Origin: Cyanophora paradoxa CCMP329
Taxonomy: Eukaryota > Plantae > Glaucophyta
Direction: 5' to 3'
DNA: 62,741 bases
Assembly: GCA_004431415.1 (NCBI GenBank)
Contig: QPMI01000663.1
Span: 1 to 62,741 of the forward strand
The position numbers and the translations under genes were made by a program. Positions 15,041 through 56,228 of this stretch are shown piece after piece (positions within the stretch are counted from its first letter, which is position 1; each line of letters starts with the position of its first letter). A model generated the notes under the pieces. That model was not told the origin of the DNA. It saw only the letters and a list, made by a program, of their open reading frames with translations, and searched no databases.

Positions 15041-15076
<36 letters not shown>

Positions 15077-21820: not shown

Positions 21821-21878
21821 CGCGCGCGCGCCGGCCACTGCGCACGATTGGGGGTACGTCGTCGGAACGAGCCGCAGC

Positions 21879-31736: not shown

Positions 31737-31962
31737 TATCAATTTTGTCACAGTAGAAGATTTCGAAGATTCACAATATACATGAGATTCTAGTGTTCGT
31801 GGTCGCGCACTCTCCGAAAGAGGTGAAATGGGAAATTCGATAGGAAATCACACATTGATCGGCAGCAAATTCCCTCAAGCGACCATCTATCTCAGCATGC
31901 GCACATGCATCTGCGCCCTCGAAATCCGGCGCCCGGCGGCTCGAGATCCACCCAATGTCTAG

Positions 31963-34262
31963 CTAGTCCGCTTCGAGGGGCTTGGGGAAGAGCCCGGCGG
32001 GCATGCCGTCTCCGAGGGCCTTCTGGAGGGTGCGCAGCTGCGTCTCCGTGGCCTGGGCGACGACGGCGAGGTAGCGGAAGAGCTCGAGGGCCCGGACGGT
32101 GCCGACGACCTTGGTGTAGTCCGGGTACTCGCGGATGAGTGCGGCGACGCACATCATGACCTTGTACGTTCGCTGGTCCACGGGGAAGTGGGCCGCGCGC
32201 AGCGCGGGGCCAAACTTTTCCTCCACCGCCACCCCCACGCTGGGCCACTGCAGGTGCTCCTTGCCCTTGCCGCGGAGGCTCTTGCGCCGATCAAAGGATC
32301 GCTTGGCGCCGCCCACCGTGCTCTCGATGTGGTGGAGCATGGCCGCCGAGAGGACGAAGCCCGCGCGGGTCCGCCGGTCCTCCGCCTTGATGAAGACCCT
32401 CTTGAGCGCCTCCAGGATGGGGCCCGTGACCCGCTCGCCGATGTCGAAGGGGTCTTCGCCCTTGCCGAGGTCTTCCTCGCACTGCTTGAGCGCGAGCTGC
32501 GCCGGCTCGTTCTCCTCGCCCGCATCGTTCTTCTTGCTCCTCTTCTTCGACTTGGCCCCCGAGCTCGAACTGGCAAACGGCGCCGCAGGGTCGGGCTCCA
32601 CGTAGGCCCTCCGGAGCACGGTGTGCATGTGCTCGGACTTGAGCATATCCTTCCGGATCTTCTTGCCCTCCTCGCCGTCGTCGAGACTCGCGTCGTTGCC
32701 CAGCTCGGGTGCGTTTACGTCGTCGTCGTTGACCACCACCTCCTCCTCCTCCTCCTGCTGCTGCTGCTGCTCCTGCTCGTCAAGAGCGTCGGCCTCCCCC
32801 GGGCCCCCGGCTGCGCTGTTTCCGCCCGCGGCGCCTTTGCCCTTCTTCTCCTGTGCCGTCGTCTTCGTCTTGGTCTTCTTTCCCTTCTGCTCCTCGGACT
32901 CACTCGCGCTCCTCCCAGCCTCCTCGGCCTCCCCGGCCTCCCGTGGCCGCTTCGAATCGTTGCCCTTGCGGCGCGGCGTCGTCCTGGCCGCGGCGTCGTC
33001 GGTCTTGAGCTGTTCTGTCTTGCGGCGCTCTCTCTTCAAACTCTCGTCGAGAATATTGTTCGGGTCGACACCGGCTGCGGGCAACCGCGCTCGGCGCGCG
33101 CGTGGACGCGCCGTGGGGCGAGGGCGCGGCGCGCACCGGCCTTGCGAGGGCGCGGCGGCGCCTGCCTGTCCGGCGATTCTTTTTCGCCGCGCCGATCAAT
33201 AGGATTGGACGCCCCTGCAAAGCCCAAAGCGGTCGATCGGCGGGGGAGGGGTTGGGCGGGGGGGGAGGCAGGGTCAAGGGGAGGGGGGGAGGGGGCGGGA
33301 CCGACGAGCACCCTCGCTATAGGGCGGCGCGGGCAGGGCCGAAGGGCCTGCATGCACGTGCAGATGAGCCGCCGGGAGCGGGGGCCGGGTCGAGGGGCCT
33401 GCGGCTGCGCGCACGCGGAGATGAGCCGCTGGAGCCAAGGCATGGTCCGCGCGGGGGCCGGGCGCACCCACGGGTCCGACGCCCGAGCCCTTCTCGTAGA
33501 TCGTCGCGATCTGCGTCATGTACTTTCCGGGCTTCATGGCGCCGCTCGTCCGCGCATCCTCCTCTTTCTTGCTCGTCAGCCGCCGCGCCCAGAGCAACGC
33601 CAGCAGCGCCGGGGAGTCCACGAGCTCGCGCGCGTCGATGTCATGGTGCTCTTCGCAGAACCGACACGTGTGAGCGTCTGCCGGATCCCCCCGCGTGAGC
33701 GAGGCGCGCGCCGGCGCCGCGCACGGCGCCCCCGAACGCGCACCCGACGCCGCCGCATCGACTCCTGCGCCGCCTGCGCGGGGAGGGCCGTCAGCGCGAG
33801 CGTACGCGGACCCGGCGCGGCTAGCTATCGCTTGCACGCCGACGCGTGCGCGGGGCCTAGCGCGGAGCGGCGGGGCCGGGGGTGGACGGCGCGCCTGTAC
33901 CTTCGCCGTCGGCGGGCGAGAAGACGCAGTTCGGACAGCGCACGCCGGCGCCGTTTTCGAGTGCTCGCTGGATCAACTTGAAGATTTCCGAGGGCTTGTC
34001 CGAGGGCTCCTTGAGCTCCGCGAGGAATCCCTCGTCGTCCAGCAGAGTCTCGTCGAGCAGCTTCAGCAGGACCGCCGCGCCGGACTGTGCGTCTCCCTTT
34101 GCGCTCTGTAGCTCCTCCAAGACGCACGCTAGGACGAGCGGCGGGCCAGAGTCCCACACGCAGCGGCCGCACGCCGCCGTCCACCCGGACGCATCGAGCG
34201 CTTCAGCTACGGGAAAGACTTTCTTGCCGAGCGCGTTGCCCTCTACTGCGCTATCGCCCATG
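31963..34262 (-). CDS. Multi-exon hypothetical protein with CxxC pairs, acidic/basic low-complexity region and helical C-terminal domain
   Basis: MGDSAVEG...CGRC...CPNC...CRFCEEHH followed by ORF 31963-33084, joined by short introns. Confidence 0.55.
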
Positions 34263-35169
34263 GGCCGGGGGAGCGCGCGCCGGGTTGTGCAGCTGCGGCC
34301 GTGCGATGAACGGTTGTACCCCCCGGCTTGAATCGTCGAAACTCTACGATTCAGGATCTCGGCGCGCGCTGCGCCGCCGGCGTCAAATGCGGCGGCTAGT
34401 GGGCCGCTAGCGCTTACAACCGCGCTTTCTGTTGCGTTTTCCACCCGGAGCCGGGCCGTAGCCGAGAGCGGGCCTATCGTCGGACCGTCCCGGGTCCGGC
34501 GGACGCGCCGGGACGCCGGCGCAGGCGGATTTGCAGTCGAGTGCCGATTGAGCACCGCGCTGCGCTGCGTGCTGCCCAGCGCGGACTCCGGGAGCGGCGT
34601 TTCGCAGTGGCCTCGCGCCCTGATGCGCTGATCCGCCCCAGCGCGCTACTAGGCTAGCGCCAGCTTGCTTACTAGCCTTACTAGCTTACTAGCGTGTACG
34701 CTTTGCGACCACGTGTTTGCGCTCGTGCGGTGCGCATGCTCCCTGCGAGCTCGGACTGCCTTGAGGCACGTGAATCCCTTCATTCTTGCATGCAAGGATG
34801 ACCCCTGTAAACGATAGTATACTTCCGACGATCAGCATCTCGGTGCGCACGTGTATCAGACGCACACGTGCACACGCGCTCACTGTTAATGCTCGGCCGC
34901 GCAACGGGGCTACACGTCTTTGCCGCGGTACACGCGCGCTAGCACGTCGGAAAGCGCATGCGCACGCGCAGCTGCAGCCGGTCGGGCCGTGGGAACCCGT
35001 CGGCGGCGCGTGCGGGCGGCTGCGGCTTGGAATCCAAAATCGAAACTAGTACTCGAGCGATTCGAGCTGCCGGGCGCTCGGCAATAGATTCGGCGAGCTC
35101 GAGTCGGCGAGCTTCGCTCCACGTGTTCGAGTGAACGGTACTTTCCCCCCCCTCGCCCCCTCTGGTACC

Positions 35170-35975
35170 ACGCTGACAAGAGCTCGGCCGTTTCCAGGTC
35201 TACGGAGCAACGTCCTGCGCTGCGCACCAGCCCGTGACCCCATACCCCCCGCGTGCACGTGGGCTCTCGCGCAACCCGCGCCCCTTTTTTTTCTGCCCCC
35301 ACAGGTCGCCGAAGCTTTCGCGCGACTCGGGGGTTCCTGTGCGGGCCGCTTTTCGTGCGAGTATGGCCTCTCGCAACGGGGTACAGATCGTTCTGCCCCC
35401 CTCTTCTAGACCTGGGATCGGCCGAGCTCTGGTCGGCGGCGAAAGAGGGGTACAGATCGTTCGGCCCCCCTCTTCTAGACCTGGGATCGGCCGAGCTCTG
35501 GTCGGCGCCGCGGCGGCCGCGGTGAAAGAGGGGTACAGATCGTTCTGCCCCCCTCTTCTAGACCTGCGATCGGCCGAGCTCTGGTCGGCGCCGCGGCGGC
35601 CGCGGTGAAAGAGGGGGTAGAGTGTAGCTCGGAATTTTTTCGTGTGTTCCGGATCCTATCCTCTCTCGAGCCACCCCACACCCTCCCGCTCTCTACCCCA
35701 AGCGCATCGACAAGACGCCGCAGATGGCGGCTGCAGGGTACGCTAATTTTTGGAGAAGCTCCGCAGGTTCGCGTGCGTGAGGGGGTACGAGTCGCCCTCG
35801 CACTCCTCTCTCGGCCGTGGATCGGCCGAGCTCTGCGATCTGGTTGGGTATCGAAGAGAGGGGTAGGGCGCCGGGCCGGCACGGCGCTCACCACTACCCC
35901 CCCTCCCCCCCCCCCCCCCCCCCCCACACACCCCCGACCAGAGGTCGGCCAATTCCGGGTCTACGCGTGACACAG
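35170..35975. repeat. Motif cluster 2, including 3 tandem ~68-81 bp units (35378-35620)
   Basis: ggggtacagatcgttc..cccccctcttctagacctgggatcggccgagctctggtcggcg x3, with further copies at ~35178 (rev), 35820 and 35935 (rev). Confidence 0.92.
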
Positions 35976-36005
35976 GGGGTACGTATACGGCAGCGTGACC
36001 TCCCA
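35840..36005 (+). repeat. Left arm of ~160-bp inverted repeat (partner 38582-38739)
   Basis: ctggttgggtatcga..gaggggtagggcgccgggccggcacggcgctcaccactacccccc...cgaccagaggtcggccaattccgggtctacgcgtgacacag..gggtacgtatacggcagcgtgacctccca is the reverse complement of 38582-38739. Confidence 0.92.
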
Positions 36006-36072
36006 CCCCCCCCAACCAGAGCAACCCTTTCAATTTCGATTGCATCTCCAAAAATAAGATATATGTATATTT

Positions 36073-36247
36073 CACGATCGGGCGGCGGAAGGGGGCCTGC
36101 AGGCGCAACGCACATGATCGGGCGGCGGGAGGGGCGCGCGGGCGCTATGTACATGTACACGATCGGGCGGCGGGAGGGGCGCGCGGGCGCAACGCACACG
36201 ATCGAGGTGGCGGGAGGGGCGCGCGGGCGCTATGTACACGATCGAGG
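36073..36247 (+). repeat. Short tandem repeat (~40-45 bp x 4)
   Basis: The unit cacgatcgggcggcgggaggggcgcgcgggcgc(aacgca/tatgta) is repeated. Confidence 0.85.
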
Positions 36248-36273
36248 CGACGACCAGGTGCTCCTGGATGCCG

Positions 36274-36972
36274 TTAGAGGTAGTCCTCATCGTCCGACTC
36301 GCCCTCCAGGTCTTCGGCGTGGAGGGCGCAGACCACGAAAAAGCCAAAGGCCTCGTAGGCGTTGGGAACAAGGGGAGACGCCACCGTGTACGTGGTGATC
36401 TCCCAGCCCTTGCGGACGATGCGCGCGTCGGAGCAGACGGCCCGCGCGATCTGGTCCGCGGTCGGCACGTCGGCGCAGACAAAGGCAATGACGCGCTCCT
36501 TGAGGAGGTCGCGGACGTGGCCCGCGACCGCGGCAGCAGACGTGGGCACGATGGGACCGTCGAGGCTCTGGACGGCCGCGCGCGGGACGACCGCGACAAC
36601 CTCGCCCCAGTTAGCAACGAGCGCGTCGCGGTACATGCCGTCGAGGGGAACTTCGAGCGCGGCGGCCGCCCCGGCGAGGCGCGCCGCGGTCGCGTCCACC
36701 GTCGTCGGCACGCCGCGGTCGAACAGCGAGACGGCAAAGGCGCGGTCCTTGGGAAGCTTGTCGTGGAGAACGCCCGCGACCTCCGCGTCCAATTCGGCCT
36801 CGGGATCGTACGCGCTGAAGGCCCGGAGGATGAACGCGTCGAGCTCGGGGTCCGCGTCCGGGAGGCGCGCCAGAGCCGTGGCCCAGGCCGCGGTTGCGGC
36901 CTCGGGCGCGGGCGTGGTGGTCGCCTCGGGCGCGGTCGTGGTCGCGGTGGCGTCGAAGCGGGTGGAAGACAT
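36274..36972 (-). CDS. Intronless hypothetical protein (~232 aa)
   Basis: ORF MSSTRFDATATT...GESDDEDYL with strong GC3 codon bias and a TATA-like aataaaag just upstream. Confidence 0.7.
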   Translation of the reverse strand: MSSTRFDATATTTAPEATTTPAPEAATAAWATALARLPDADPELDAFILRAFSAYDPEAELDAEVAGVLHDKLPKDRAFAVSLFDRGVPTTVDATAARLAGAAAALEVPLDGMYRDALVANWGEVVAVVPRAAVQSLDGPIVPTSAAAVAGHVRDLLKERVIAFVCADVPTADQIARAVCSDARIVRKGWEITTYTVASPLVPNAYEAFGFFVVCALHAEDLEGESDDEDYL

Positions 36973-37692
36973 GGTCGAGGGTGAAGTTGTCGAGGTGCGA
37001 GTGTGGGGATTGCCTGCGCGGGGCACCCCTTTTATTCTGCCGAGCTTTGGGCAGGCTGCTTTCGCCCAATTCGGTCTCGGGGGCGCCCTCCTGCACGACT
37101 CGGTTGCGGATGATTGCCGGCCGTTGGGCGGGGGGTAAGACGCGCTGCAGCGGGGGGTACGGCGGCCCCGGCGCCGCCCCTAGGTGAGCGGACTGGATGC
37201 ATCGTGGCCGGGGCCGACGCGCTCGGCGCCGCGGGGATCCGAGCCCGGTACCTTTCAACCCCTCCTTTCTCTCCCGTACCCGCCTCTGCTTTTCCCCCCC
37301 TGACCGCCATGCAGCCGCTGGGCGGACAGAGGACGCGGGGCGGGACGGGGCGGCCGAGGGCGCTCCCCGCGCAGGCCGTTGGGGCGGGGGTACGGCGGGC
37401 TGCGGCGGGGGGTACGGCGGCCCCCGCACCACCCCTTTTGGCACGCCGCCTGGACGCATCGTGGCCGGGGCCGGCGCGCGCGGCGCCGCAAGAGAGGGCG
37501 AGCCCGGTACGCGTCCGCCCCATGCGCACACGCGCCGCCGCCCCTCGCGCGCCCCTCTGGGCCCCTGGCGGGCGCCCGGCGCGCCCCACGCCAAGCCTCT
37601 CGCGGGCGGGACGATCAAGACGAGACCGCACTCGGTATTGGTACAAGGCGCGCAACGCAGATCACGATCGGGGCGCGCGGGCAGAGGCCTAA

Positions 37693-38331
37693 CTAGGCAT
37701 GCGCATTGTACGTGTACGCCGACACGAGGGGAAAGGCAGAGGCCGCGTCCGCGCGGATCTTCTTGGCGCGGACCAGGTCGCGGGCGGTCGGGAGGATTCC
37801 GCGCGCCCCGGCGTAGAGGATCGCGTCGTCCTCCGGGCCGGCCGCGCCGCCGAGGGCGGCCCACGCGGTCTCCAGGCGCCGCTCGCTCTCGCGCAGCGCG
37901 CCGTCTGCGTCGGCGCACGCGAGCACCATCCTCTTGAGGCGCTGGACGTCGACGCGGCCGCCGCCCGCCGCGCCGCCGACAGAGACGCGGGTCCCGGTGA
38001 GGTACACGACCTTGTTCAAGAAGCGGTGCAACTTGCGGGACCTCCTCTCGGCGATCACGTTGGTGGCGCGGATCACCTCTGGTAGAAAGTTGATCAGCAT
38101 CGCACGGAAAAAGGCGACGTCGGCCTGGGACAGGCGATCCAGCAGCTCGGCGGGCGGCATCTTCAGGAGAGCCTTGGTGTCGTCGCGGAACGAGAGGGGC
38201 CGATCGCAGTCGGAGTGCAACTTTCTCGTCTCGCGGTCGAGGTCGTCGAAGCTCTCCTCGAAGAAGAGGTGGACGGCGCGGGCGCCGCGGAAGAGCGCAG
38301 AGTTGAGGGCGGCCAGCCGCACGTGCGCCAT
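37693..38331 (-). CDS. Intronless hypothetical helical protein (212 aa)
   Basis: ORF MAHVRLAALNSALFRG... with protein-like composition and GC3 bias. Confidence 0.7.
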   Translation of the reverse strand: MAHVRLAALNSALFRGARAVHLFFEESFDDLDRETRKLHSDCDRPLSFRDDTKALLKMPPAELLDRLSQADVAFFRAMLINFLPEVIRATNVIAERRSRKLHRFLNKVVYLTGTRVSVGGAAGGGRVDVQRLKRMVLACADADGALRESERRLETAWAALGGAAGPEDDAILYAGARGILPTARDLVRAKKIRADAASAFPLVSAYTYNAHA

Positions 38332-38581
38332 GGTCCACGGGTGGAGGATCGATTGGGGTCGAAGAGTGCGGGGCCGACGGGCGCGGACGGCGATCTAGGC
38401 GGCTGCCCCGACCGATTCAACCAAAACGGTCGCCCGCCCAGGCGTGTTTCGCACGACTCGGTCGCCTCCCAAGGGTACCCCTTTCCCCTCTCACACCCCC
38501 GCCCCCTCTTCCCCTCCCCTCCTGGCCTCTATCCACCCTCGCACAACGACCGCGGAGTCGCGCTGCTTCTCTGTCAGGGGA

Positions 38582-38739
38582 TGGGAGGTCGCGCTGCCGT
38601 ATACGTACCCCTCTGTGTCACGCGTAGACCCGGAATTGGCCGACCTCTGGTCGGGTGTGGGGGGGAGGGGGGGAGGGGGGGTAGTGGTGAGCGCCGTGCC
38701 GGCCCGGCGCCCCTACCCCTCTCCTCGATACCCAACCAG
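38582..38739 (-). repeat. Right arm of ~160-bp inverted repeat (partner 35840-36005)
   Basis: Reverse complement of 35840-36005. Confidence 0.92.
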
Positions 38740-38752
38740 CGCTACGCGGGAC

Positions 38753-39236
38753 ACAGAGGGGGTACGTGTACGGCAGCGTGACCTCCCACCCCCGACCAGA
38801 TGTCGGCCAATTCCGGGTCTACGCGTGAAGAGAGGGGGTACGTGTACGGCAGCGTGACCTCCCACCCCCGACCAGAGGTCGGCCAATTCCGGGTCTACGC
38901 GTGAAGAGGGGGGGTACGTGTACGGCAGCGTGGCCTCCCACCCCCGACCAGAGGTCGGCCAATTCCGGGTCTACGCGTGAAGAGAGGGGGTACGTGTACG
39001 GCAGCGTGGCCTCCCACCCCCGACCAGAGGTCGGCCAATTCCGGGTCTACGCGTGAAGAGAGGGGGGTACGTGTACGGCAGCGTGACCTCCCACCCCCGA
39101 CCAGAGGTCGGCCAATTCCGGGTCTACGCGTGAAGAGAGGGGGGTACGTGTACGGCAGCGTGACCTCCCACCCCCGACCAGAGGTCGGCCAATTCCGGGT
39201 CTACGCGTGAAGAGAGGGGGTACGTATACGGCAGCG
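38753..39236. repeat. Motif cluster 3: tandem array of 6 x 76-77 bp units
   Basis: cgaccagaggtcggccaattccgggtctacgcgtgaagagagggggtacgtgtacggcagcgtgacctcccacccc recurs at 38793, 38869, 38945, 39021, 39098 and 39175. Confidence 0.97.
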
Positions 39237-39397
39237 CCGCGTGAGACGACGCGCGAGGTTACGGAAATGCTCCCCTTTGTGTTTTTGCAACAACGAGCTA
39301 GAGTCGGGGCGCGTGCGTCCCAACCGACGCTGCACTGGCGTGCAGAAAAACAGAGAGGGAGAGGGGGGGGATGCGGGCGGGCGACGGCATCGTCGGC

Positions 39398-40009
39398 TCA
39401 CGCGCTCGGCGCGGCGCCGTTCCGATCGGGCGGGGAGAGCCAGGCGGGGTCGACGAAGCGCGCGCAGAGGGCCCGCGGGAGGGCCGGGTCCAGCCCCGCG
39501 GCGGCCTCGGCGAGCCTCGCCGCGTAGGCCTCGCGCCCGGCCTCGTACAGGCGCCTGTGCGCCGCCGAGAGCGGCACGATCTCGAGGCCCGGGTCGGCGC
39601 GGCAGAGGGGGCACCGGAGCGGCGCGATCGGGAGGATGCAGCCGAGGCAGAAGACGTGCCCGCACCCGAGGCGCGTCGGGCGGCACGGGTGCTGGAGGCA
39701 GACGGCGCACACGGCGTCCTCGGCGAGCGCGGCGCGCGCGGCGGGGCGCCACAGGTTGCTCGCGCACGTCCAGGCGACGTGGGCGGCGCGGCCGACGGCC
39801 TCGTAGCGCGCCAGGGCGCCGGCGTCGCGGGTGGGGTCGCCCCCGGCCGGCGCCTCGACGATCTCGCTCACGATGCGGCTGGACTTGACGCCGAGCGCGA
39901 GCGGCGCGGCGATCACGCCCCGGGCGGCGTCGTAGGCGTGCCCGTCCAGGTACTTCCACCGTCCGAGGTCGTAGGTGCGCTCGGGCGCGGGCGCGGCGGC
40001 AGAGGCCAT
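39398..40009 (-). CDS. C3HC4 RING-finger protein (putative E3 ubiquitin ligase), intronless
   Basis: CAVCLQHPCRPTRLGCGHVFCLGCILPIAPLRCPLCR. Confidence 0.9.
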   Translation of the reverse strand: MASAAAPAPERTYDLGRWKYLDGHAYDAARGVIAAPLALGVKSSRIVSEIVEAPAGGDPTRDAGALARYEAVGRAAHVAWTCASNLWRPAARAALAEDAVCAVCLQHPCRPTRLGCGHVFCLGCILPIAPLRCPLCRADPGLEIVPLSAAHRRLYEAGREAYAARLAEAAAGLDPALPRALCARFVDPAWLSPPDRNGAAPSA

Positions 40010-40298
40010 TTTTTCCGAGGGTGTTGGCGGGGGGAGGGTACGAGGAATCTGGGCGGGGCGCAGACCCTCCCCTCTACCTCCTAGGAGATCTCCGGGGGGT
40101 ATTTAGCCGTTTGCCCTCTGGCCCCCGCCCCTGCTACCCCCCCCGGCCCCCACCCCCTCCCCCTTTCCCTTTTCCCCCTCTCGCCCCCACCTCGCCGTTT
40201 CGGCCCAACGGACCGAATCGCACGACTCGGCGGCCGGTGGCGCCCCAACACATAAAAGAGAGGCGCCCCTCTGTCCGGGCGTCAGTCTCTACTCGACG

Positions 40299-43200
40299 AT
40301 GAAGCGGCCGGCGGACCCCGCCGCCCCCGAGGAGCCCACCTGCGCCCGAACCGGACCGGCACCGCCGCCGGTGCCGTCGCCCCCCAAGGCGGTCGCGGAT
40401 GCAGAGGGCGACCTCGAGATGGAGGACAAGGCGCCGGTGGGCGCGACCGCGCCGCCCTCGGGCGCGCCCCTCCCCGCCCCCGCCGCGAGCCAGATCGTGC
40501 GGACCACGGTCCTCGTCAAGAGCAACCCGCGCAAGGGCGCCGCGCGCGACGCGATCTTTGCCGTCCCCTGGCAGCCCGCCGACGTGGAGAGGCTCGAGTC
40601 GCCGTCCGCGCGCCGCGCCGTCGTCCAGATCTCGCCCCAGATCCTCGTCGAGCACGCGGGCGGCGCCCGGCGCACCCTCCGCGCGTTCAACGTCTTTGAC
40701 TTTGACGTCCCCAACATCCGCTTCCCCGAGGCGCTGGAGGGCGGCTCTCTCGGGAGGGAGCAGCTGAAGAACGCCAAGAAAGAGTACCTCGCCGGCGTGC
40801 TGGCGCGATGCGAGACCCTCGCCCAGTACTGGACCGAGGTCCCCGAGATCCTCGGCGTCGCCCGCCGCGCGCGCGACTTTGCCCGGGCCCTCCAGGCGCG
40901 CGGCGTCGCCGTCCTCGTCGTCTTCTCGGGCCTTAAGGGCTTCCACGTCTACGTGCGCGACGCCGACCTCGTCGCGGCGGTCGAGGGGCCCGGCGCCGCC
41001 GTGTACGCCAAGGAGGACCTCGACCAGTGGTGGGGCATCGTGCGCGCCAAGCTCAAGCGGCTCGAGGAGGACTCGGCGGCGGCGCTGCGCGACCCGTCGG
41101 TCCCGCAGGGGGAGAAGAGCCGCCTCCGCCGCTCCTTCTGGTCCAAGGCCACGCGCGCCGCCGGCCCGCGGCGCGTCCCCGGCATGTACAAGGCGGGACG
41201 GTGGGAGGGGCGCGAGGCCTTTGAGCGCGTCGTCGTCCCGTTTGCGGAGGAGCGCGGGATCGGGGCGATGGTGGAGCAGCTGGAAAGGGAGGGCGTCCTG
41301 GACCTCGCGCCGTTCCGCGTCAACAGCGGCTGCCGCTCCGACGAGCACCGCCACGGCTGGACCTCCTACTACCCCGTGGCGGTACCCCTGGAGGCCGTCG
41401 ACGACGCGGCGATCGCGGCGACGGTCCGCCTGCACGCCACGCGGCCCGACCCGCTCCTCGTCGCGTGGAACAGCGACGAGTGGCGCTGGCTGCGCGAGCT
41501 CGCGCGCGAGATCGCCCCCAAGCACACCCTCCACGTGGCGGCCCCCGCGGACGGCGCCCGCCCTCCGCCGCCCAAGCGCCCGCGCGCCCCCCCGGGCCCC
41601 CGGCCGCCGCCGACGCTCGATCGGGAGGGCGAGGAGGAGGAGGAGGAGGGCGGGGGTGCGGAGGACGGGGACGCCGAGGACGAGGCGACGATCAGCGAGG
41701 GCGTGGTGGAGCGCCTCGGGCTCCTCGCGTGCGGGGCGGGGCGCGGGCGGGGCTGGAGCGCCGCCCCCGGCCGCGGCCGCGGCGGCCGCGGCGGCCCCTC
41801 GATCTCCCACTTTGTTTCGCCGCCCGACGCGGACGGGGGCGAGCTCTGCCCCCACGGGCGGGACCACGAGCGCGTGGAGACGAGCATGTGGGTGGCGGAG
41901 AGCGGCATCCCCGGCGTCCTCGCCGCGACGGCGCACTGCTACTCGCTCCGCTGCGCCGGCGAGCCGCTCCTGGGCGCCCTCGCGTGGGCCCAGCCGGGCG
42001 CCTTTGGCGGCGCCTCGACCCTCGCCCAGGCCGACGCGGCGCTCCTGGGGCTCCACGCCACCGTCGCCCGCATCGCCGACCGGAGCCTCCAGCTTGCGGA
42101 GAGGCTCGCGCGCGCGGCGGCGGCGGCGGCGGCGGCAGAGGCGCAGGCGGCAGCGGCGGCGGCAGAGGGGGAGGGGCAGAGGGGAGGGGGCAGAGGGACG
42201 GGCCCGGAGGACGGCGCGCGCGGGGCGGCGCCGGCGCCGGCCGCCCCGCCCTCCCGCAGCGGCCGGCGGGGGCGCTGCCCCCGTCCGCGTCGCCTCGCAC
42301 GTCGAGGGCCGCTCCTACTTTGTCCGCGTCCCCTGCTGGAGCTGCGGTCACCGCAAGGGGAAGCTCTTCATCGACCAGACGAGCGGGGAGGCCGAGGAGC
42401 GCGGTCAGGTGCGCGTCCGGGCGTGCGGCGCGGCGGCGTGCGGCGGGCGCTGGGCCTGCGGGCCGCTGGAGCTCGGCGAGGACGACGCGACCGAGCTCCG
42501 CCTCGCCGAGGACGAGGTGGACATGTTCTCCCTCCGGCTCTTCCCCGAGCAGGCCAAGTCCATGGGCGCCGGCACCTTTGGCGCGACGGCCCGCAACCCG
42601 TACTGGGCGGAGCTCCCTCAGGGCGCCGTCGACTACCTCGATGCCGTCGTCGCGTGGCTGCGCACGCTCGGCGCCGGCGCGGCGCTCCCCTCCGACGGCG
42701 GCCCCGAGCGGCGCGTCCGGCCCCGCGGCGTCGGGCCCCCGGGCTCCTTTCCCCTCGAGGACGGCGCGACCGGCGGGCCGGCGGCGCGGCTGCACGCCAT
42801 GCTGCCGGACCTCGCGACGTGGCGCGCTGCCCTCCGCCTCCCCGAGCTCTCCCGGCCCCTCGCGATCCCGGCGGACTTTGATCCCGTCGCCCGACGCTGG
42901 ATCGACATCGACGAGCCGGCGGGCCCGGGGGCCCAGCGCTTCTGCAGCCCGGCCCCCATCCTCGCGCGCCTCGACGGCGGGAGGAAGACGATCTTTGTGC
43001 GGGCAGAGACCGGGAGCGGCAAGACGGAGACGTGCGTGGGGGGCCGCGAGGGCGCGGCGGGGCCGGGCCCCCGGGGGATCCTGCAGGCGGTGCTGGACGA
43101 CCCGGCGCTCGTGGGGCTCCCCAGCGTCCCCGGCGCGCCGCCCCGCGTCCTCTACGTGACGGCGGGGCGCGTCCAGCCCGACATCCTCGTCAAGGACCCC

Positions 43201-46200
43201 CGCTTCGCGGCCCTCTCCTACCCCTCGGCGTCGGGCGAGCGCGTGCCGGTCGCCTGGACCGTCTACAAGGAGGCCCGCCCCGAGGAGCTCGCCGACGCCT
43301 CGTTCGTCATGTGCACGGTGCAGAGCGGCCGCCGGCTCGAGGGCGACTTTGACGTCGTCATCGTCGACGAGGGGGCGCGGGCCCTCACGACCCTCACGAC
43401 GGGCGGGCCGTTCAAGGGGCCCGAGCACCACGCGCAGACGGTCGCCTGGTTCGACAGGGCGCTGGAGGCGCCGGCGCTCGTGATCGTCGCCGACGCCGAC
43501 CTGCTGGACGAGGACGCCGCCCTCTACGCCGCGCGCCGCCCGGGGGCGGACGTCATCTCGTACCTCAAGCGCGGCAGCAACGACGCGCGCCTGCGCTGGA
43601 CGGCCATCGACATTCGCTACGCCGCCGCCGTGATCGCCGCCAAGCTCCTCGCCGGCGAGGTCGGCTACATCGCCTGCTCGACGCGGCGCGCCCTCTGGGA
43701 GATCGAGTCCATCGTGCGGCGCCACATGCGGCTCTCCGGGCGCCGCTGCGAGTTCCTGTACGCCGACGCGGACCGGCGCGCGAGGCAGACGATGACGGAC
43801 TCGGACTACGTCTGCTCCGCCCTCTGCTACGCTTCCAACTACGCGATGCCCCAGGGCACCGACTTTTCCAGCGGGCCGCCCGCCAACTTTGTCGCCTACA
43901 TCGAGGAGGGGCGGACCGCCGACGTCAACGCCGGCTTTCAGCTCGTCCGCCGCCGCCGTCACGTGATCGGGCCCGACGCCTTTTTCTTCTGCCGGTTCCC
44001 CCGCAAGGCCCCCCTCCCCGACCGGCAGGGGCGGCCCCTGCACGCCCCCGTCGACTGGCGGGCGATCTACGGCGAGCTGGTGGACTCGGTGCGCGCGTGG
44101 AACGAGCGGCTCCCCGCGGAGAGGCGCGTGGCGACCGAGGAGCACTACCTCCGCGTGCGGGCCGTCCGCACGGCGCTCCGGAACGCGACGCACGCGTGCC
44201 CCATGCTGGCGTTTCACCTGAAGCTCCGCTCGCTCGGCAACGAGGGCCTCTACGTGTACCCCCTGCCCCAGCCCCCGAAGAAGCCCAAGGGCGGCGCGCG
44301 CGCGGGCCCGAGCGCGCCGGCGGCGCCGGCGGCGGGGGGCCTCCCCTGGATGCCGGAGGGGTACTCGGACTCTGCCGTCCCCCTGGCGGCCGAGGTCGAG
44401 GCGCGCGAGCGGCTCCTCCCCATCGTCGCCGCGCCGCGGCTGCTGGGCTACGACTGCGCCAAGGCGATCCGGGGGGCCATGGAGTACGGGACGTCCACGG
44501 TGGAGGTCTCCGACGCGGCGCGGCGCGCCTGGAAGCGCGAAAAGGCCGCCGCGCGCTTCGGGCTGCGGCCCGAGCAGGTGGGCGTCGCCGAGGTCCGCCT
44601 CTCGGAGCAGAGCCCGCCGGCGGAGATCTTCCGCCTCTCCAAGCGGTTCGCCCTCGACACCCTCCCGTACCTCGCCTCGGGGGCGGCCCCCGACGAGGAG
44701 AGCGCGACGCTCCTCCCGGACCACCGCGAGCGGCGCCGCCCCTTTGAGAGCGCCCTGCGGCTCTTTGAGCTGCTCGGCGCGCGCGTCCCGCCCGGCGGCG
44801 GCGCGGCGGCGGCGGCGAGCGACGTCGCGGCCGGCCTCCGTTACCTCTTCTGGGCGACGTGGGAGGGGCCGGAGGACTGCGGCGCGGCGCGCCTGCGCGG
44901 GCTCGGCGAGGCGATCGAGGAGGGTGGCATCTTTACCGACGGGCCCCTCGGGCGGCTCTTTGCAAACGCCTGCCGCGCGGCGTGGGAGCGGATCGCGATC
45001 CCCTACTCGCCGATCGCCGCGTACCGCGCCGACGCCCTCCGCTGGCAGTGCGCCGAGCTCTGGCAGCTCGAGTGCCTCCGCCCGGAGAAGCGCAACAAGG
45101 GGGCCGCCCCTCCCCCGATCGGGGACTGCGCGCGGCGCCTCCTGCACGACCTCGTCGTCCACGCCGCGGAGCAGCTGGGCCTCGGCGTGCTCGTCGCGGC
45201 GGCCGACGCGCGGCGCGTGGTGCGGGGCGGCGCGCGCAGGACCGTCAAGCGCACGCGCTACTGCTTCGACCCCGAGACCGTCCTCCTCGGCCTGCGCCTC
45301 TACGGGCGCGATCGGGACGGCCGCGGGGACGTCCCGCCCGACGCGACGCTCGGGGCGCTCCTGGCGGCCGGCGTGCGCTCCCTCCAGATCGCGCTCGTCC
45401 AGGATCCAAATTCCAAGCTCCGGGCGGCGGGCGCGGGCGGCGGCGGCGGCGAGGGCGGCGAGGGTGGCGCCCCGGGCGCGCCGGCAGAGGCGGGGGCCCG
45501 CCCCCGCCCGAGCGACGCGGCGAAGCGCGTCGTCCGGCTCCTCAAGTCGGGCGTGCACTCGGCGGTCTTCTTCTCCGGGGCGGCGCGCGCGGTCCTCGGC
45601 GAGGACGCCGCCCGCTGCTGGCGCGGGGCCGGCGACGGGGAGGAGGAGGGGGACGGGGCCACCCGCGCGTCGCCCTACGCAGAGGTCCTGGCGCGCGTCG
45701 CCGCCTCCGAGGCCCCGAGGCCCTCGCCCCGATCGCGCCGCCCCTCGGCGCCGGCGCCGACCCGACCGTCGCGGCGCTCTGCGCGCGGGACCTGGCGCGC
45801 GCCGCCCTCGCGATGGACGACGGGGCGGCGCGGGAGGGCCTCGGCTTCCCCGCCGCGGAGGAGTCTCCCGCCCTCCCCACCGAGGACGTGACCTGGCTCC
45901 TCGGTCGCCTCGCCGAGGCCGCCGGCGCCCCCGCCCAGCGCGCCTCGGAGTGGTGCCCCGTCGTGGAGGGGCGGGAGGGGCCGGACCCCTGCGTCGGGTT
46001 TGCGTACACGTCGATCTTTGCGCGGGACCTCCCCCAGGAGCGCCGCACGCTCCCCTCGTCCGGAATCGACGTGGCGCGCACGGGCTCCGACACCTCGGGC
46101 ATCAGCCTCTTCGTGGACGGCGCGGCGCGGCTCCTGCCCGAGGACCTCGCGCGCCCGCGCGTCGCCCGCGGGCCGCGCTCGTGCGGGGCGAAGATGCTCC

Positions 46201-46298
46201 TCTTCGTACCCCGCTCCACCTTTCAGCACTTTGGCGTACCCCTCTTGGCCCTTCCCCTCCGCCCCGCCCCGGCACCTACCCCCGCTCCCCCTGCGTGA
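40299..46298 (+). CDS. ~2000-aa AEP primase(-polymerase) fused to Zn-binding motifs and an SF2 helicase of the herpesvirus UL9/origin-binding-protein type; two apparent frameshifts (~42250, ~45715)
   Basis: AEP motif I VFDFD and motif II FSGLKGFHVYV. CPH...HCYSLRC and CWSCGH...CGAAAC. Walker A IFVRAETGSGKT, Walker B DVVIVDE, and LVIVADADL, GYIACSTR, YASNYAMPQGTDF. Confidence 0.8.
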
Positions 46299-46510
46299 AT
46301 GCGAAATTCGATGTGCGGTCCGCGCCCCCTCCCCCCGCGCCGAGTCGTTTGAAAGCGCGCCGCCGCGTTGTGCGCTCTCCCAATTTGGCTCTTTTTTTGC
46401 CTGCCCGCCGCTTTCGCTTGATTCGGGCCCTCGGCGCCGATAAAACTCCTCTCCCCGCGCCGCTTGGCTCACTCTTTTTGCCTCTTCTCATCGCAGATCA
46501 CGACCTGGCC

Positions 46511-48367
46511 ATGGACTCTACCACGACGATGAACCCCCACGCAGACCTCGCCACGACGATGACCGCGGCCGGCGCTCCCCGCCTCGTCAAGAAACCCGTC
46601 AAGAAACCCATCAAGAGCGACTTCTGCACGCGGATGGACCTCCTCCCGGTCGACCTGTCCGAGGCAATCCTGCACTACCTCGGGCGCGAGGACCGCCTCA
46701 AGATGCTCACCGTCTCCCAGCAGTCCCGCTCCTTTGCGCTCGGCACCTCGGGCGTCTCGAGCGGCTGGTTCGACGCCCTCGCGGTCGACGACGCGCTCGC
46801 CCTGCTCGTCGGAGGGCCCGGCGCGCCGCGCGGCGCCCGCCTCCGTCTCATCGCGGGGCGCGGTCACGGGGCGGAGATCCCGATCCCGTCGCGCCTCGGC
46901 GGCCTCGACGCGACCTTTGCCCTCCCGACAGAGCCCGGGAGCGAGGGCCGCTGGGTGTGCATCCTCTTCCCCCCGGCGGCGGCGGCGGGGGCCGAGGACC
47001 TCTCCCCGCGAGGCGCCATCATCCGCTACGGGCCGGGCGGGTTCGGCGACGCCCTGCAGATCCCGGCCGGGTTTCCCATTCACGACTTTGCCCGCGGTTC
47101 CGTCTCCATCGCCGGCGACGGGACGATTGTGCTCGGCGGCGAGCGCGGCTGGCTCGTCTGGTCCGCCGACGGCGGCGTCTCGGCGGTCGACGTCGGCGCG
47201 GCGGTCGCCGGCGTGGTGGCGTGCCGCCCCTCTCCCGACGCCTCGCGCGTCGCGATCTGCAGCGTCGTCGGCGACGGCGGCTCCGCGGGCGGCCGCGTCC
47301 TCGTCCGCTTCGTGGGCTCTGGCGAGTCTGCAGAGGGCGCCGCCGCGGCCCCCGCGGCCGACGCCGGCCCCCTGCGCTCGACAGCGGCGCGCACGCGGCT
47401 CTCCCACGAGCTCGCCGAGGTGGACGGCTCCGGGGACCCCTCGGCCCTCGGCGACTGGAGCGACGTGCCCCTGCGCGAGTGCGACGCGAGCCTGACGTGG
47501 AACGCGCGCGGCAACGCCGTGCTGGTGCGGATCAAGGTGGCGCGCAGCGGTATGGAGGCGGGCGATGTGGAGATGGGCGACGCCGGCGGCGATGTCGACG
47601 TCGACAGGATGGAGGACGACTGCAGCGTCGACGAGCCCGCCGCCCGCGAGGAGGCCTTTGTCGAGTTTATCGCGTCGGTGCGGCTCTCGGGCGGCGCTGC
47701 GCGCCAGGGCTGGTGGATCGTCTGCGGCGCCGAGCCCGCAGAGGCCTTTGCCGTCGGTCTGGGCGAGAACTGGCTCCTCCACGCGGCTCGGGACGTGGGC
47801 GGCATCCGGAGCGCGTCCATGTACGTCTACTACCTCGCCGGTGGCGCCTCTGGTCGCCCCACCATGGTCGAGCTGCACATGCCCTGCGAGGGCAAGTCGT
47901 GGCGATGCGTCACGCCCGTCGGCGACTGGAACTTCATCTACCAGGCCGCCGGTCAGTTTGAGCTCAACGGGACCAGCGTCGATCGCCCTTTTCTGGTCTC
48001 CGTGACGCCCTACGCCCGCGACCTGGAGTATTTCGAGCTGCCCGAGGCCAGCGGTCTGCTGGAGGCGCGCTCCATCCGCCCGCTGGGAGCCGTCGGACTG
48101 CACGGGGTGGCGGCCCTCGCGGTCGGGACGGACCAGGACGCCCCCGCGCCGTTCAACGTCGTCCGGTACATCCGCTGGTCGGGGATCGGGAGGCTGGCGG
48201 GTCAGGGCGGCCCGTTTGCGGCGTCGATCAGCACCCACCTGCAGCACAACACGTTTCGGCCGACCCGCGAGTGGCTGGACGATCGCTACTACACCGTCGA
48301 GGGCGAGCGGCACAACAACACGCTCACGCTCTTCCCCGGCGAGCCGCAGCCGACGCTGCACGTGTGA
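46511..48367 (+). CDS. F-box protein with beta-rich (propeller-like) C-terminus, intronless (~618 aa)
   Basis: MDLLPVDLSEAILHYLGREDRLKMLTVSQQSRSFAL matches the F-box consensus LPxELxxxILxYLxxxDLxxLxxVSK. Confidence 0.75.
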   Translation: MDSTTTMNPHADLATTMTAAGAPRLVKKPVKKPIKSDFCTRMDLLPVDLSEAILHYLGREDRLKMLTVSQQSRSFALGTSGVSSGWFDALAVDDALALLVGGPGAPRGARLRLIAGRGHGAEIPIPSRLGGLDATFALPTEPGSEGRWVCILFPPAAAAGAEDLSPRGAIIRYGPGGFGDALQIPAGFPIHDFARGSVSIAGDGTIVLGGERGWLVWSADGGVSAVDVGAAVAGVVACRPSPDASRVAICSVVGDGGSAGGRVLVRFVGSGESAEGAAAAPAADAGPLRSTAARTRLSHELAEVDGSGDPSALGDWSDVPLRECDASLTWNARGNAVLVRIKVARSGMEAGDVEMGDAGGDVDVDRMEDDCSVDEPAAREEAFVEFIASVRLSGGAARQGWWIVCGAEPAEAFAVGLGENWLLHAARDVGGIRSASMYVYYLAGGASGRPTMVELHMPCEGKSWRCVTPVGDWNFIYQAAGQFELNGTSVDRPFLVSVTPYARDLEYFELPEASGLLEARSIRPLGAVGLHGVAALAVGTDQDAPAPFNVVRYIRWSGIGRLAGQGGPFAASISTHLQHNTFRPTREWLDDRYYTVEGERHNNTLTLFPGEPQPTLHV

Positions 48368-48706
48368 TCGGCGGCCCGTGCGCTCCCGTGCGCGTTTCTC
48401 TCCCGCGCCGCCGATCCCTTTCGTCCAATAGGATCGTCCTTATTGAATGTTACCAGTTTTTTTTTGCGTGGTGGGGGGCCGGGCCGGGGCGGGGGTGGTG
48501 GTAGATGGCGCGGGCCCGAGGGGTGGGGCTAGGGGGGCGGGGGGGGGCGGGGGGGCCGAGGGGGGTACCCTCTGGAGCACCGAGTTGGTTGAGCGCAGCA
48601 ACTTGAAGGCCCGATTCGGACGAAAGGGTCCCCTGGTCTCCCAAAAAGCCGAGCAGGTGCGCGATGCGGTCATTCTTTCTCACATCGTCAAGAACCGAGA
48701 ACAAGG

Positions 48707-49267
48707 ATGGCCGCCGCCCAGCCCTGGCAACACCCCCGTCGCAACGTCCTGATCGACATGGGAGAGCTGGTCAGCGACTTTTTCCGCTACAACTACGACG
48801 CCGAGGACGCCGACCTCTACGACAGCGACGTCGTGGCCCTCGCGACCAAGGCCAAGGCCGGCGAGGTCCCCGCGCGCGAGACGGACGACGCGCTCCAGAA
48901 GCTCCGGCCGACCGCGGAGCGCATCCGCCCCATCGCGACGGGCCTGTTCGCGGCGAGCGTCCGGCAGTACTCGGGCGGTCTCATCGAACTCCAGAACGTG
49001 TTGGGGCGCGCCTTTGCGAACCGCGTCGACGCGACCTTGGCCTCGCGCGCCCAGGGCCAGGGCCCGCAGGCCACCTCCTCCGACCTGGCGTACGTCGTCT
49101 TTCCCGTGGAGCTCTGGTACGAGATGCTGTCGTGCGCGGGATCCGAGATTCTGCACTTGGACCTGTACGAGCGCGTCGTCCTCGGGATAGTCCCCCTTTT
49201 CCTCACGATGCTCCGCGCCGGCAACATTCGCGTTGCCGCCGGCAAAGTTCTGTCGGCGATCTCGTGA
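48707..49267 (+). CDS. Intronless hypothetical protein (186 aa)
   Basis: ORF MAAAQPWQHPRRNVLIDMGELVSDFFRYNY... with GC3 bias. Confidence 0.7.
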   Translation: MAAAQPWQHPRRNVLIDMGELVSDFFRYNYDAEDADLYDSDVVALATKAKAGEVPARETDDALQKLRPTAERIRPIATGLFAASVRQYSGGLIELQNVLGRAFANRVDATLASRAQGQGPQATSSDLAYVVFPVELWYEMLSCAGSEILHLDLYERVVLGIVPLFLTMLRAGNIRVAAGKVLSAIS

Positions 49268-49587
49268 GCAGAGAATATATTGTGCCGAGCGCATTCAAAG
49301 TGCGTAGAGTTTTTGTGTGCGGTGTGGGACTGAGAATCGAACTGACATGCGCGCACGCGCGCGTGCTCTCGTTTCCGGCTCTACGCATAACTTTGGGGGC
49401 CAGCTCGAGCTCCTGGACGCACGGGCTCGATGCACGCGGGGCTCTCGAGTAGAGTCGCTGCAGTTTGGCGCGCGCGGCGCCGGCCCCAGAGCGCGCGTGA
49501 GGGCATTTTCGTGATCAAGAATGGTTTTTGTTTTATCTTTCAAACAATCGACGTGCGGTTGCGGGGTGCCTGGGGGATTTTCGTACC

Positions 49588-50560
49588 CTGCCGCCGTCGC
49601 CTCATAGAGCCGCGATCGGCCGAGCTCTGTGCAGGGGGGGCAAGGGGGGGGGGGGGGGGGGGGGGAGCGGAGCGGACGGGGGTACGGATCAGGAAGCGTC
49701 CGGCATCGCCCTACCCTCGGCGGCAGCACCCCCTGCGCAGAGCTCGGCCGATTCCGGGGCGAGAGAGAGGGCGAGAATAGACAGAGGGGTACGCACCTCT
49801 GCCGCCGCCGCTCATAGAGCCGCGATCGGCCGAGCTCTGTGCAGGGGGAGGAAGAGAGGGAGGGGCGGAGCGGGCGGGGGTACGCATCAGGAAGCGTCCG
49901 GCATCGCGCAGCCCTTGGCGGCAGCGGCCCCTTGCGCAGAGCTCGGCCGATTACGGGACGAGGGTGCGAGAAAATAAGCAGAGGGGGTAATCACCTCTGC
50001 CGCCGCCGCTCATCGAGCCGCGATCGGCCGAGCTCTGTGCAGGGGGGGCAAGGGGGAGAGGGGCGGAGCGGGCGGGGGTACGCATCAGGAAGCGTCCGGC
50101 ATCGCGCAGCCCTTGGCGGCAGCGGCCCCCTGCGCAGAGCTCGGCCGATTACGGGGCGAGGGTGCGAGAAAATAAGCAGAGGGGGTACTCACCTCTGCCG
50201 CCGCCGCTCATCGAGCCGCGATCGGCCGAGCTCTGTGCAGGGGGGGCAAGGGGGAGAGGGGCGGAGCGGGCGGGGGTACGCATCAGGAAGCGTCCGGCAT
50301 CGCGCAGCCCTTGGCGGCAGCGGCCCCCTGCGCAGAGCTCGGCCGATTACGGGGCGAGGGTGCGAGAAAATAAGCAGAGGGGGTACTCACCTCTGCCGCC
50401 GCCGCTCATCGAGCCGCGATCGGCCGAGCTCTGTGCAGGGGGGGCAAGGGGGAGAGGGGCGGAGCGGGCGGGGTACGGACCAAGGTGAGCGTCCGGTATC
50501 GCGCCCTACCCTCGGCGGCAGCGGCCCCCTGCGCAGCGCTCGGCCGATTACGGGACGAGG
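49588..50560. repeat. Motif cluster 4: 5 tandem ~198-bp units, each with two inverted copies of the motif
   Basis: gagccgcgatcggccgagctctgtgcagggg at 49607, 49817, 50015, 50213 and 50411, each followed by cccctgcgcagagctcggccgatt. Confidence 0.96.
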
Positions 50561-50891
50561 GTGCGAGCGCGGGCAGACAGAGGGGTACGTAAGGTTTCGC
50601 TACGGCGGAAACGACAGATCCGGCAAAGGTCGAGCTCGGATCGGGCGGCCGTGCACGGGCATCTCACACGCACCCGGCAAGTCGATCCGCGCGCCGACGC
50701 CGCCCGCCACCGGGAAGCCCGCACCGTACCCCCCAAGCGCCACAGAAAGGACCGATTCGCGCGACTCGGTCCCGACAAACGCATAAAGGACCTCGCCCGC
50801 CGCCGTCGCGGTACTGCGGGCCGCCCCACCGCGCCCCTGATACGCAGCACATCGACAGCGCGCGCACCGACTCGCTGAGCGGGGGTGGAAC

Positions 50892-51566
50892 ATGTGCCGC
50901 GAGGGCCAGCTGGTCACGACGCGCGACGGGGACGTGGTGTGCGATGCCTGCGGCGCGGCCGAGGCGGTCGTCGGGACCCTGGGGGGCAGCGAGAAGCCGG
51001 GGGCCGACGAGAGCCCGCCCGCGTCGCCCCGCGAGCCCTCGCGGTCCGAGGTCCGCATGGGGCGGCTCCTGGAGGGCGCAGCGTCGGCGCTGGGCCTCGC
51101 CGAGGCGGCGGTCCACGAGGCGCGGCTGCTGCTGGCGGACCGCGGGCTGCTGAGGGGCAGGAAGAGCGAGATTATCGTCGCCGGCGCGCTCTACTACGCG
51201 GCGGCCTCGGCCGGCGCCCCGCGCACCGTCGACGACGCGCTCGGCTGGCACCCCGACCTGCGCACACGCCGCGCGGCGCTCGTCAGGATGGTCCGCGCGA
51301 TCCACCGCCGCCGCGGCGTCGGGCGCATCCCCCGCGCGCCCGACTACGTCGACGCGCTCGCCCAGCGCGTGGGGCTGGACGGGGCGGACCTGCGGGCGGC
51401 GCGGGAGTACGCGGAGCGGCACCGAGACTCGGGAAGGAGCCCGATCGTTGTCGCCGCGGCGGCGTTGGTGGAGGCGGGCGGCGCTTCGACGCGCGAGGCC
51501 GCGCGCGCGGCCGGCATTACGACCGTTGGCATCCAGGTCTGCATCAAGGCGTTCGCCGCCGCCTAG
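50892..51566 (+). CDS. TFIIB-like transcription initiation factor (Zn ribbon + cyclin folds), intronless
   Basis: C..GQLVTTRDGDVVCDACG Zn ribbon; ASALGL...HEA..L...LLRGRKSEIIVAGALYYA...PRTVDD cyclin repeat; second repeat GRSPIVVAAAAL. Confidence 0.82.
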   Translation: MCREGQLVTTRDGDVVCDACGAAEAVVGTLGGSEKPGADESPPASPREPSRSEVRMGRLLEGAASALGLAEAAVHEARLLLADRGLLRGRKSEIIVAGALYYAAASAGAPRTVDDALGWHPDLRTRRAALVRMVRAIHRRRGVGRIPRAPDYVDALAQRVGLDGADLRAAREYAERHRDSGRSPIVVAAAALVEAGGASTREAARAAGITTVGIQVCIKAFAAA

Positions 51567-52388
51567 AGGAGAGCAGAGCGTCATCGCGTGTCGCATGTTG
51601 CTGTTTTGCGAATACTATGCGAAACTAAATGCCATTTGCGCGTGCGGGAATGGGGCGGGCGGTGCACCGCCGGATCGAGTTGCGGTCGGGTGGCTCGGCG
51701 GCTCGCGGCGGCCCAAGGCGCCTGCGCGCGGCTTAACGCGACTCTAGAGTCCTATACACAGCACCGAGACCTATCTATGGCGTCGCTGCCGCTCCAGGCC
51801 GCCGCCGTGACGCCGCGGTCAACCTGCGCCGCGCACGCAGCATGCGGGCCGCCGGGCCCGTGGCCGGGAGCCGGAATCTCGCAGTCGCGCAACTAGCAAA
51901 AGCCCCGAGAAGAATCTCGCCGCCCGCGCCGCTCGAAGCGATCGGGTACTGGTACCGAGCCGCCCCCTACCTCGGACTTGGGCGAATCCGAGTCGCCGAG
52001 TCCAAAGTCCAACTTTTGCGGCGGCGGCGGGCGCGCCTAGACTCATCTTTGCCGGCATATAAGACCTCTATCAAGTTCATTTAGCTGGGGCAAGCCGCCC
52101 GCGGGGCCCGCGAAGGTACTCGTCCGAACCGAACGATCATCGCGCGGCACGGGGAAAATCACGGGTTCGAATGCGCCCGTCTCCTCTTTTCGGGAAAGCT
52201 TACACGTCGCGCTCGCCTAGCCCTAGTTTTCTGCCGGCGCTGGCGCTAGAGGCCGCAGCCGCAGTCGCCGCGCATCCGCGAGCTCGCACCCCGCGCGCGT
52301 GGCGACGAGCTTCCCGGCCCGCGGCTCGACGAGCTCTCCGCGGGCTCTCCCGGCTCGTGTAGCGCCTCTGTCGATCGTAGAGAGCCGA

Positions 52389-53003: not shown

Positions 53004-53097
53004 GCTCCCGAAGAAAGACGCTCGCTCTGCTGGTTCGCGGTGCTGGCAGGTGCGCCCTGCCCCTACACTCCCCGGGGCGGGCCCGGCACGCATCGCT

Positions 53098-56197: not shown

Positions 56198-56228
<31 letters not shown>

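Follow-up and report, generated by a model that had tools for sequence, protein, structure and literature searches.

Proteins in which an AEP primase is joined to a UL9-like SF2 helicase have been described in mimivirus (R8), ASFV (pF1055L), OsHV-1 and some mriyaviruses (10.1101/2024.02.29.582850), in SmDNAV (10.64898/2026.08.29.747986) and among some AEPs of bacterial mobile elements (PMC5862659). According to the sections of the sources available, primase-SF2 fusions also occur in PLVs (PMC12220804; 10.64898/2026.10.13.758929), the AEP-SF2 arrangement is a "sizable minority" among polisuvirus replicases, and some AEPs are processive polymerases (both 10.64898/2026.10.13.758929). An earlier note on the DNA analysed here had contrasted its gene with NCLDVs and PLVs as groups that usually pair AEP with an SF3 (D5) helicase; in the light of these reports that contrast was overstated. 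For the origin-binding protein of HSV-1 (OBP, UL9), the available part of PMC12543377 places the DNA-binding domain, with its RVKNL motif, at residues 536-851.

The window, that is the whole stretch of 62,741 nucleotides analysed from Cyanophora paradoxa CCMP329, contains a gene whose product belongs to this known fusion family as a new and highly diverged member. The fusion as such is not new. The new part is the setting: the primase-helicase lies in a 48-kb multi-copy element together with a likely recombinase, no capsid protein or polymerase being detected, and the element may represent a new class. We assign a probability of about 0.58 to the reading that the primase-helicase is the predicted replication initiator of a plasmid-like, multi-copy element of 48 kb which integrates by means of its recombinase and has no detected capsid. 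The features on which the analysis relies are collected in Table 1.

Table 1. Positions of the features located in the window, counted from its first letter.
Feature	Position	Strand	Evidence
Mobile element unit, 47,876 bp, holding the primase-helicase gene	11285..59160		self-BLAST, junctions, contig ends
Start of second head-to-tail copy, reaching the window end	59161..62741		self-BLAST
Histone-fold (H3-like) frame near left end	11802..12053	-	Pfam E 3e-7
Box cluster, 7 boxes	15006..16212		
Multi-exon AAA+ ATPase, by Pfam family not an A32 packaging ATPase	29156..30200	+	PF00004 E 6e-6
Box cluster, 5 boxes	35418..35952		
76-bp x 6.5 tandem array with box, ~1 kb upstream of the primase-helicase gene; candidate origin	38742..39236		
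RING-finger protein, divergently oriented from the primase-helicase	39398..40009	-	Pfam E 4e-5, below cut-off
Primase-helicase gene: AEP - Zn finger - Zn ribbon - UL9-like SF2 helicase - C-terminal region	40299..46298	+	
Frames of the primase-helicase gene	40299-~42250, ~42283-45712, ~45713-46298	+	ORFs
AEP-like primase domain	40500..41520	+	motifs, profile/fold/embedding matches
Cys/His cluster 1, predicted Zn finger	41847..41954	+	kept in P0007
Two one-base deficits relative to short-read contigs	42244..42282	+	42277 and ~42250
Cys cluster 2, predicted Zn ribbon	42334..42441	+	kept in P0007
SF2 helicase, UL9/R8/pF1055L type	42877..44265	+	VIA, Foldseek, profile search, ESM Atlas
C-terminal stretch of ~675 aa without assigned family; its position alone makes it a candidate for DNA binding	44266..46298	+	
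One-base deficit relative to short-read contigs	45709..45716	+	2/3 DNA runs
F-box-like protein, 618 aa	46511..48367	+	Pfam F-box E 0.004, below cut-off
198-bp x 4.6 tandem array, inverted box pair per unit; candidate origin	49656..50567		DNA hairpin z -4.3
TFIIB-like protein	50892..51566	+	Pfam E 6e-7
GIY-YIG endonuclease	52392..53093	-	Pfam E 4e-8
Gene with introns for a Ulp1/C48-like protease and a likely tyrosine recombinase	53571..57926	-	C48 clan E 3e-8; motifs PSR, SKT, AIR, GHS, NY

The primase-helicase gene (40299-46298, + strand) is a single coding stretch of about 2,000 codons, which occupies three frames in the assembly and requires no intron to be read. All the elements that the earlier note had seen in one ~6-kb intronless reading region, namely the AEP motifs, two Zn-binding clusters and the SF2 motifs, were located there. 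The AEP motifs are DFD (motif I, 40698-40706), SGLKGFH (motif II, 40926-40946) and LD (motif III, ~41301). Cluster 1 has the pattern C-x-H-G-R-x-H...H-C-x-S-x-x-C (C-H-H-C-C), which we take to resemble the PrimPol/UL52 finger, and cluster 2 is formed by four cysteines (CxxC...C-x4-C). An alignment with the relative P0007 showed that the AEP motifs and both Cys/His clusters are kept there. The SF2 motifs span 43003-43959 and comprise Walker A (43003), DE (43366), DAD (III), QG (V) and Q-x3-R-x-R (VI); residues K52, D167, E168, D209, A210, G330, Q358, R362 and R364 are invariant in all five aligned helicases. No Pfam family reached its curated cut-off anywhere in the gene, and the family calls therefore rest on profile, fold and embedding searches. 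The search of PHROGs returned nothing below E 0.2. A Glyco_transf_4 match, which overlaps AEP motif II, was discarded as spurious. The C-terminal region, of which only the first part was folded, with low confidence, had no match in PHROGs or Pfam.

As judged from profile and predicted model, the helicase is of the UL9/R8/pF1055L type. Profile search, Foldseek, VIA and ESM Atlas all placed it as UL9-like, in agreement with the family proposed in the earlier note and not with an unrelated SF2 family. A profile built from five helicase sequences and run against 177,635 PDB sequences gave four matches at E<=10, all of them "Replication origin-binding protein" (E 2e-4 to 1e-3), with an alignment to OBP covering motifs I, Ib-III and V-VI; single-sequence PDB searches with both gene halves gave noise only. 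The AlphaFold model of the helicase (mean pLDDT 60.5, higher in the first domain) adopts a tandem RecA-like SF2 fold that is nearest to OBP in both Foldseek and VIA. With Foldseek, HSV-1 OBP occupied ranks 1-4 in the PDB, and OBP-type proteins of marseillevirus, mimiviral and herpesvirus origin led the BFVD ranking. With VIA, the match to residues 48-515 of HSV-1 OBP reached a Z of 18.7 (rmsd 4.7, 382 aligned), the next family being at Z 15.3. Herpes_ori_bp occurs in 53%, 20% and 31% of the members of the three best ESM Atlas clusters (0.97-0.98). The alignment to OBP stops at residue 515 and is thus limited to its helicase half: neither the VIA alignment nor the motif search detected a counterpart of the DNA-binding domain 536-851 in the primase-helicase gene, where a pattern search for R[VI]KxL (RVKNL) was negative. 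The protein may contain a differently folded DNA-binding domain.

Identification of the AEP domain is likely on the basis of its motifs and is weaker than that of the helicase. The domain is 36% identical to P0007. Its ESM Atlas matches range from 0.91 to 0.95 and include a best set of 24 hits (0.95) with no name, a DNA_primase_S cluster (0.93) and LigD clusters. In Pfam, DNA_primase_S (E 0.003) and LigD were both matched below cut-off, each on motif II. The model of this domain is poor (pLDDT 39.9), and the only domain-wide matches retrieved by VIA, both below its noise level, were 8b9d_O and the core primase 1zt2_A, at Z 5.8 and 5.4 with 22% identity; 8b9d is the human replisome with Pol alpha, and we take its chain O to be the primase subunit. 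The best BFVD match was likewise a primase domain, at an E-value of 7e-3 that is below the noise level, and the AEP profile had no match in the PDB. One relative, P0008, shows no recognisable AEP in the alignment, so the primase may be dispensable.

Breaks in the reading frame had been noted at ~42250 and ~45715. Both were confirmed, with the correction that the first consists of two deficits (~42250 and 42277), which brings the total to three. We consider assembly errors the most likely cause. GC3 is 0.94-0.99 in one frame until ~42100, where its peak shifts frame, to shift back at ~45700. The contigs assembled from short reads are one base longer behind 42277 in all three DNA runs and behind 45712 in two of the three; among the contigs listed, none of the third run (X1) bridges the latter site. 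The deficit near ~42250 was deduced from frame arithmetic and from one X2 contig, which has 773 letters over 771 places. The neighbouring protease gene has the same one-base error at two breaks, bridged and corrected in 4/4 runs, and P0007 holds the AEP, both clusters and the helicase in a single model of 1,775 aa (34% identical in the helicase). The gene thus likely encodes an intact primase-helicase, a reading in line with the earlier note. Real frameshifts, which would make this copy a pseudogene, appear very improbable. The contigs from short reads represent the majority copy, in which the gene has no fewer than 11 differences from the window; they do not prove that the copy analysed here is open, and P0004 and P0006 also appear frameshifted. 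Against this, none of the 11 listed substitutions makes or removes a stop, and every break is a one-base deficit in a C-rich run, an error also found in other genes and in the second copy of the 3.6-kb repeat, where 17 single bases present in the first copy are missing, 15 of them C.

The boundaries of the element are defined by the repeat at its right end. Positions 59161-62741 are 99.3% identical to 11285-14880, the differences being nearly all one-base gaps. Contigs of two runs (X2 and X10) stop exactly at 59160 instead of entering the repeat. A tandem copy or a circle junction is therefore favoured, and a long-terminal-repeat structure is less likely, but among the contigs listed none crosses the 59160/59161 junction. 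The contig ends at 59160 are what would be expected if other copies ran on into different flanks. No TIR was found within 200 bp of the unit ends. TGTAT is present at both junctions (11276-11284 and 59152-59160), where four unlike bases separate it from the shared end, the right host flank lying outside the window; this arrangement resembles the coupling sequences of Tn916-type recombinase elements. On the left, the flank 4100-11284 has a lower GC (0.545), a 55-bp inverted repeat (9879-10003) and a number of short frames; it may be a further repeat that separates the element from a host gene. The latter (100-4050, +) is GC-rich and multi-exon, has the Walker A sequence GEAGYGKS, and by eye looks like an adenylate-cyclase-associated AAA/TPR protein.

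A recombinase-like gene lies within the same unit as the primase-helicase. Its protease and recombinase parts are fused in all six paralogous gene models compared. The recombinase residues R, K, R, H/GH and Y are present, the first histidine (that of HxxR) being replaced, and Pfam detected Phage_integrase at E 0.022 on the paralog P0010; from these motifs the protein is likely a tyrosine recombinase. The paralogs P0011 and P0013 are ten gene numbers apart on one contig and may form another tandem pair. Some frames of the element were noted by eye and had no Pfam support: a multi-exon gene at 17000-19090 (-) with an H-R-D...H...R pattern, which we take to be that of TET/JBP-type 2OG-Fe dioxygenases, a SET-domain-like frame at 22240-22950 (+) and a Skp1-like frame at 58455-58870 (+).

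To look for polymerases, capsid proteins and A32/packaging ATPases, 337 of the 339 stop-to-stop frames of at least 75 aa were scanned with Pfam, and the remaining two from their ATG; none was found. Strict motif patterns for PolB, HUH and A32 matched nothing, loose patterns gave three matches judged to be due to chance, and no HUH endonuclease was found by pattern or Pfam. Visual inspection of the unassigned ORFs revealed none that is beta-rich and has the size of a capsid protein. The claim that the element has no PolB was thus borne out by Pfam and by strict motif, and it is fairly safe, PolB being usually easy to detect. A diverged capsid protein could be missed because Pfam also missed the helicase, the AEP and the recombinase. 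To call the protein the "sole" replication protein, as the earlier note did, similarly relies on negative searches by a procedure, Pfam, which missed the primase-helicase gene itself.

All 14 relatives found (6 for the helicase and 8 for the recombinase) are EukProt gene models of C. paradoxa, and a search of 1.84 billion representatives gave 5 matches, all in this species. No relative outside C. paradoxa was found in viral contigs (3 scans), metagenome contigs or phages (query P0007); the search for longer relatives spanned only 3,150-5,000 aa. In two cases, one of the six helicase relatives lies on the same contig as one of the eight recombinase relatives (g9756 with g9764 and g10527 with g10514), 8 and 13 gene numbers apart as read from the gene names only. 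The helicase-recombinase pairing is thus kept in relatives at 28-34% identity. C. paradoxa is likely haploid, as stated in the available text of PMC6704402, and the contig variants are therefore probably copies and not alleles. The depth of the contigs that cover the gene exceeds that of window-specific pieces severalfold, which is consistent with a few near-identical copies in the genome, depth not being equivalent to copy number.

Among the matches listed, no RNA run carries the primase-helicase gene; a 491-nt contig (depth 4.8) covering part of the AEP comes from a run guessed to be RNA and is no evidence on expression either way. Two runs guessed to be RNA contribute contigs (depth 37-74) over the protease end of the recombinase gene at 56413-58442, which hints at transcription of the element. 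At 54640-54701, an X20 contig (guessed RNA, depth 11) leaves out 62 bases that fit GT..AG on the + strand. This strand is antisense to the recombinase, whose catalytic Tyr region the gap overlaps, and the contig may come from a spliced antisense transcript.

A 14-bp box is repeated within the unit, where all of its 28 matches (0.37 expected) fall in four clusters between 15006 and 50547. The boxes flank spacers that are G-rich, not AT-rich, and they could be recombinase or transcription-factor sites instead of parts of an origin. If the primase-helicase acts as the initiator, the tyrosine recombinase would cut the unit out in circular form, in the way suggested for Cryptons, the C-terminal region or the Zn modules would bind the 14-bp boxes, the SF2 motor would open the DNA and the AEP would lay primers. 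Host nuclear polymerases could then extend these primers, and the recombinase would re-insert monomers or tandem copies. This scheme builds on the observed domain order, UL9-like helicase fold, element boundaries, co-located recombinase-like gene and repeated boxes; its enzymatic steps are inferred. Host chromatin and the ubiquitin pathways of the host would be the targets of the cargo (H3, TFIIB, RING, F-box and Ulp1), and this points to a nuclear life of the element. Extending this scheme, we tentatively propose a new class, possible at best, of eukaryotic self-replicating element, a capsid-less nuclear "integrative plasmid" of ~50 kb, in which a Crypton-type Ulp1-recombinase is combined with a herpes/NCLDV-type primase-helicase and iteron-like boxes, whose circle would be replicated by host polymerases, and which would carry its own chromatin and ubiquitin effectors.

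Two other origins of the unit were weighed against its being a replicating plasmid-like element. It could be an endogenous virus, similar to a PLV, a mriyavirus or a small NCLDV, that has lost its capsid module or in which this module is too diverged to be detected, the gene being its ordinary primase-helicase. This would agree with reports, as far as their available parts go, that PLVs often combine a primase-helicase with a YR, that AEP-SF2 is found in PLVs and mriyaviruses, that SmDNAV has TFIIB and an AEP-UL9 protein with no polymerase (10.64898/2026.08.29.747986) and that giant-virus insertions occur in C. paradoxa (PMC12344493). Against it stand the lack of any capsid or A32 ATPase match, motif or capsid-sized ORF in the searches above, the intron-rich genes, the persistence of the helicase-recombinase pairing among diverged relatives and the negative scans of viral contigs, and we regard a viral origin as unlikely. 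A giant Crypton-like transposon moving by excision and reinsertion alone, with the primase-helicase as captured viral cargo or as a help in gap repair, seems more doubtful still. Cryptons have a YR, sometimes a C48 peptidase, and terminal repeats of 5-6 bp (PMC3212892), of which the TGTAT common to both junctions is reminiscent, and the relative lacking a recognisable AEP points the same way. Here the gene, with intact catalytic motifs, stays beside the recombinase across a deep divergence, and the accessible portion of PMC3212892 mentions no helicase for Cryptons.

Should the plasmid-like reading be true, eukaryotes would have a giant transposon that carries a primase-helicase and forms no virion, linking Cryptons to the polymerase-less nuclear DNA viruses. 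The element also offers a test of whether AEP-SF2 fusions of R8/pF1055L type recognise origins as UL9 does: it is compact, holds the candidate protein together with the candidate boxes, and belongs to an alga that can be cultured. Our literature search found no description of this element or of its combination of genes in the texts available; the locus may already be present in PLV tables (PMC12220804, PMC10120064) or in GEVE coordinates (PMC12344493).

Compared with R8, pF1055L and their counterparts in OsHV-1, mriyaviruses (SF2_hel) and SmDNAV, as described in the available parts of their reports, the protein has the same N-terminal AEP with intact motifs and C-terminal UL9-like SF2 helicase, and the top BFVD matches are of this kind; mriyaviruses and SmDNAV also have no DNA polymerase. 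It differs in its length (~2,000 aa, against ~1,000-1,200 for most BFVD matches), in the two Cys/His clusters between the domains and the long C-terminal extension, in the low identity of the fold alignments (9-17%) and in not belonging to a recognisable virus. With HSV-1 UL9 it shares the helicase fold and motifs I, Ib (S-x-x-R), II, III (DA), V (G) and VI (R-x-R), whereas UL9, in the sections consulted, has no intact primase, and its DNA-binding domain and RVKNL motif were not found here. PLVs with Prim-S2H or AEP-SF2 and a YR resemble the element in having a replicase with a YR, a likely one in the element, and in integrating into algal genomes; they span 14-40 kb in the sources at hand, less than the present unit, which also differs by its many introns and in which no TIRs, capsid proteins or A32 ATPase were detected. 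The Plavaka giant repeats of Amoebidium, as far as their main text describes them, are intron-poor, are flanked by a Plavaka transposase and come with no mention of a helicase, and they are similar to our element in reaching up to 50 kb, in their YR genes and in their tandem clusters. The search with the recombinase returned no Crypton YR among its 8 matches, and the 48-kb element differs from Cryptons by its primase-helicase, its chromatin/ubiquitin cargo and the fusion of protease and YR in the gene models. CryptonS and CryptonF-2_PS have, according to the available part of PMC3212892, a YR, a C48/Ulp1 peptidase, no TIRs, a short direct repeat at the junctions and a proposed circular intermediate, to which the likely YR, the C48-like protease, the lack of a TIR within 200 bp, the TGTAT and the predicted circle of our element would correspond.
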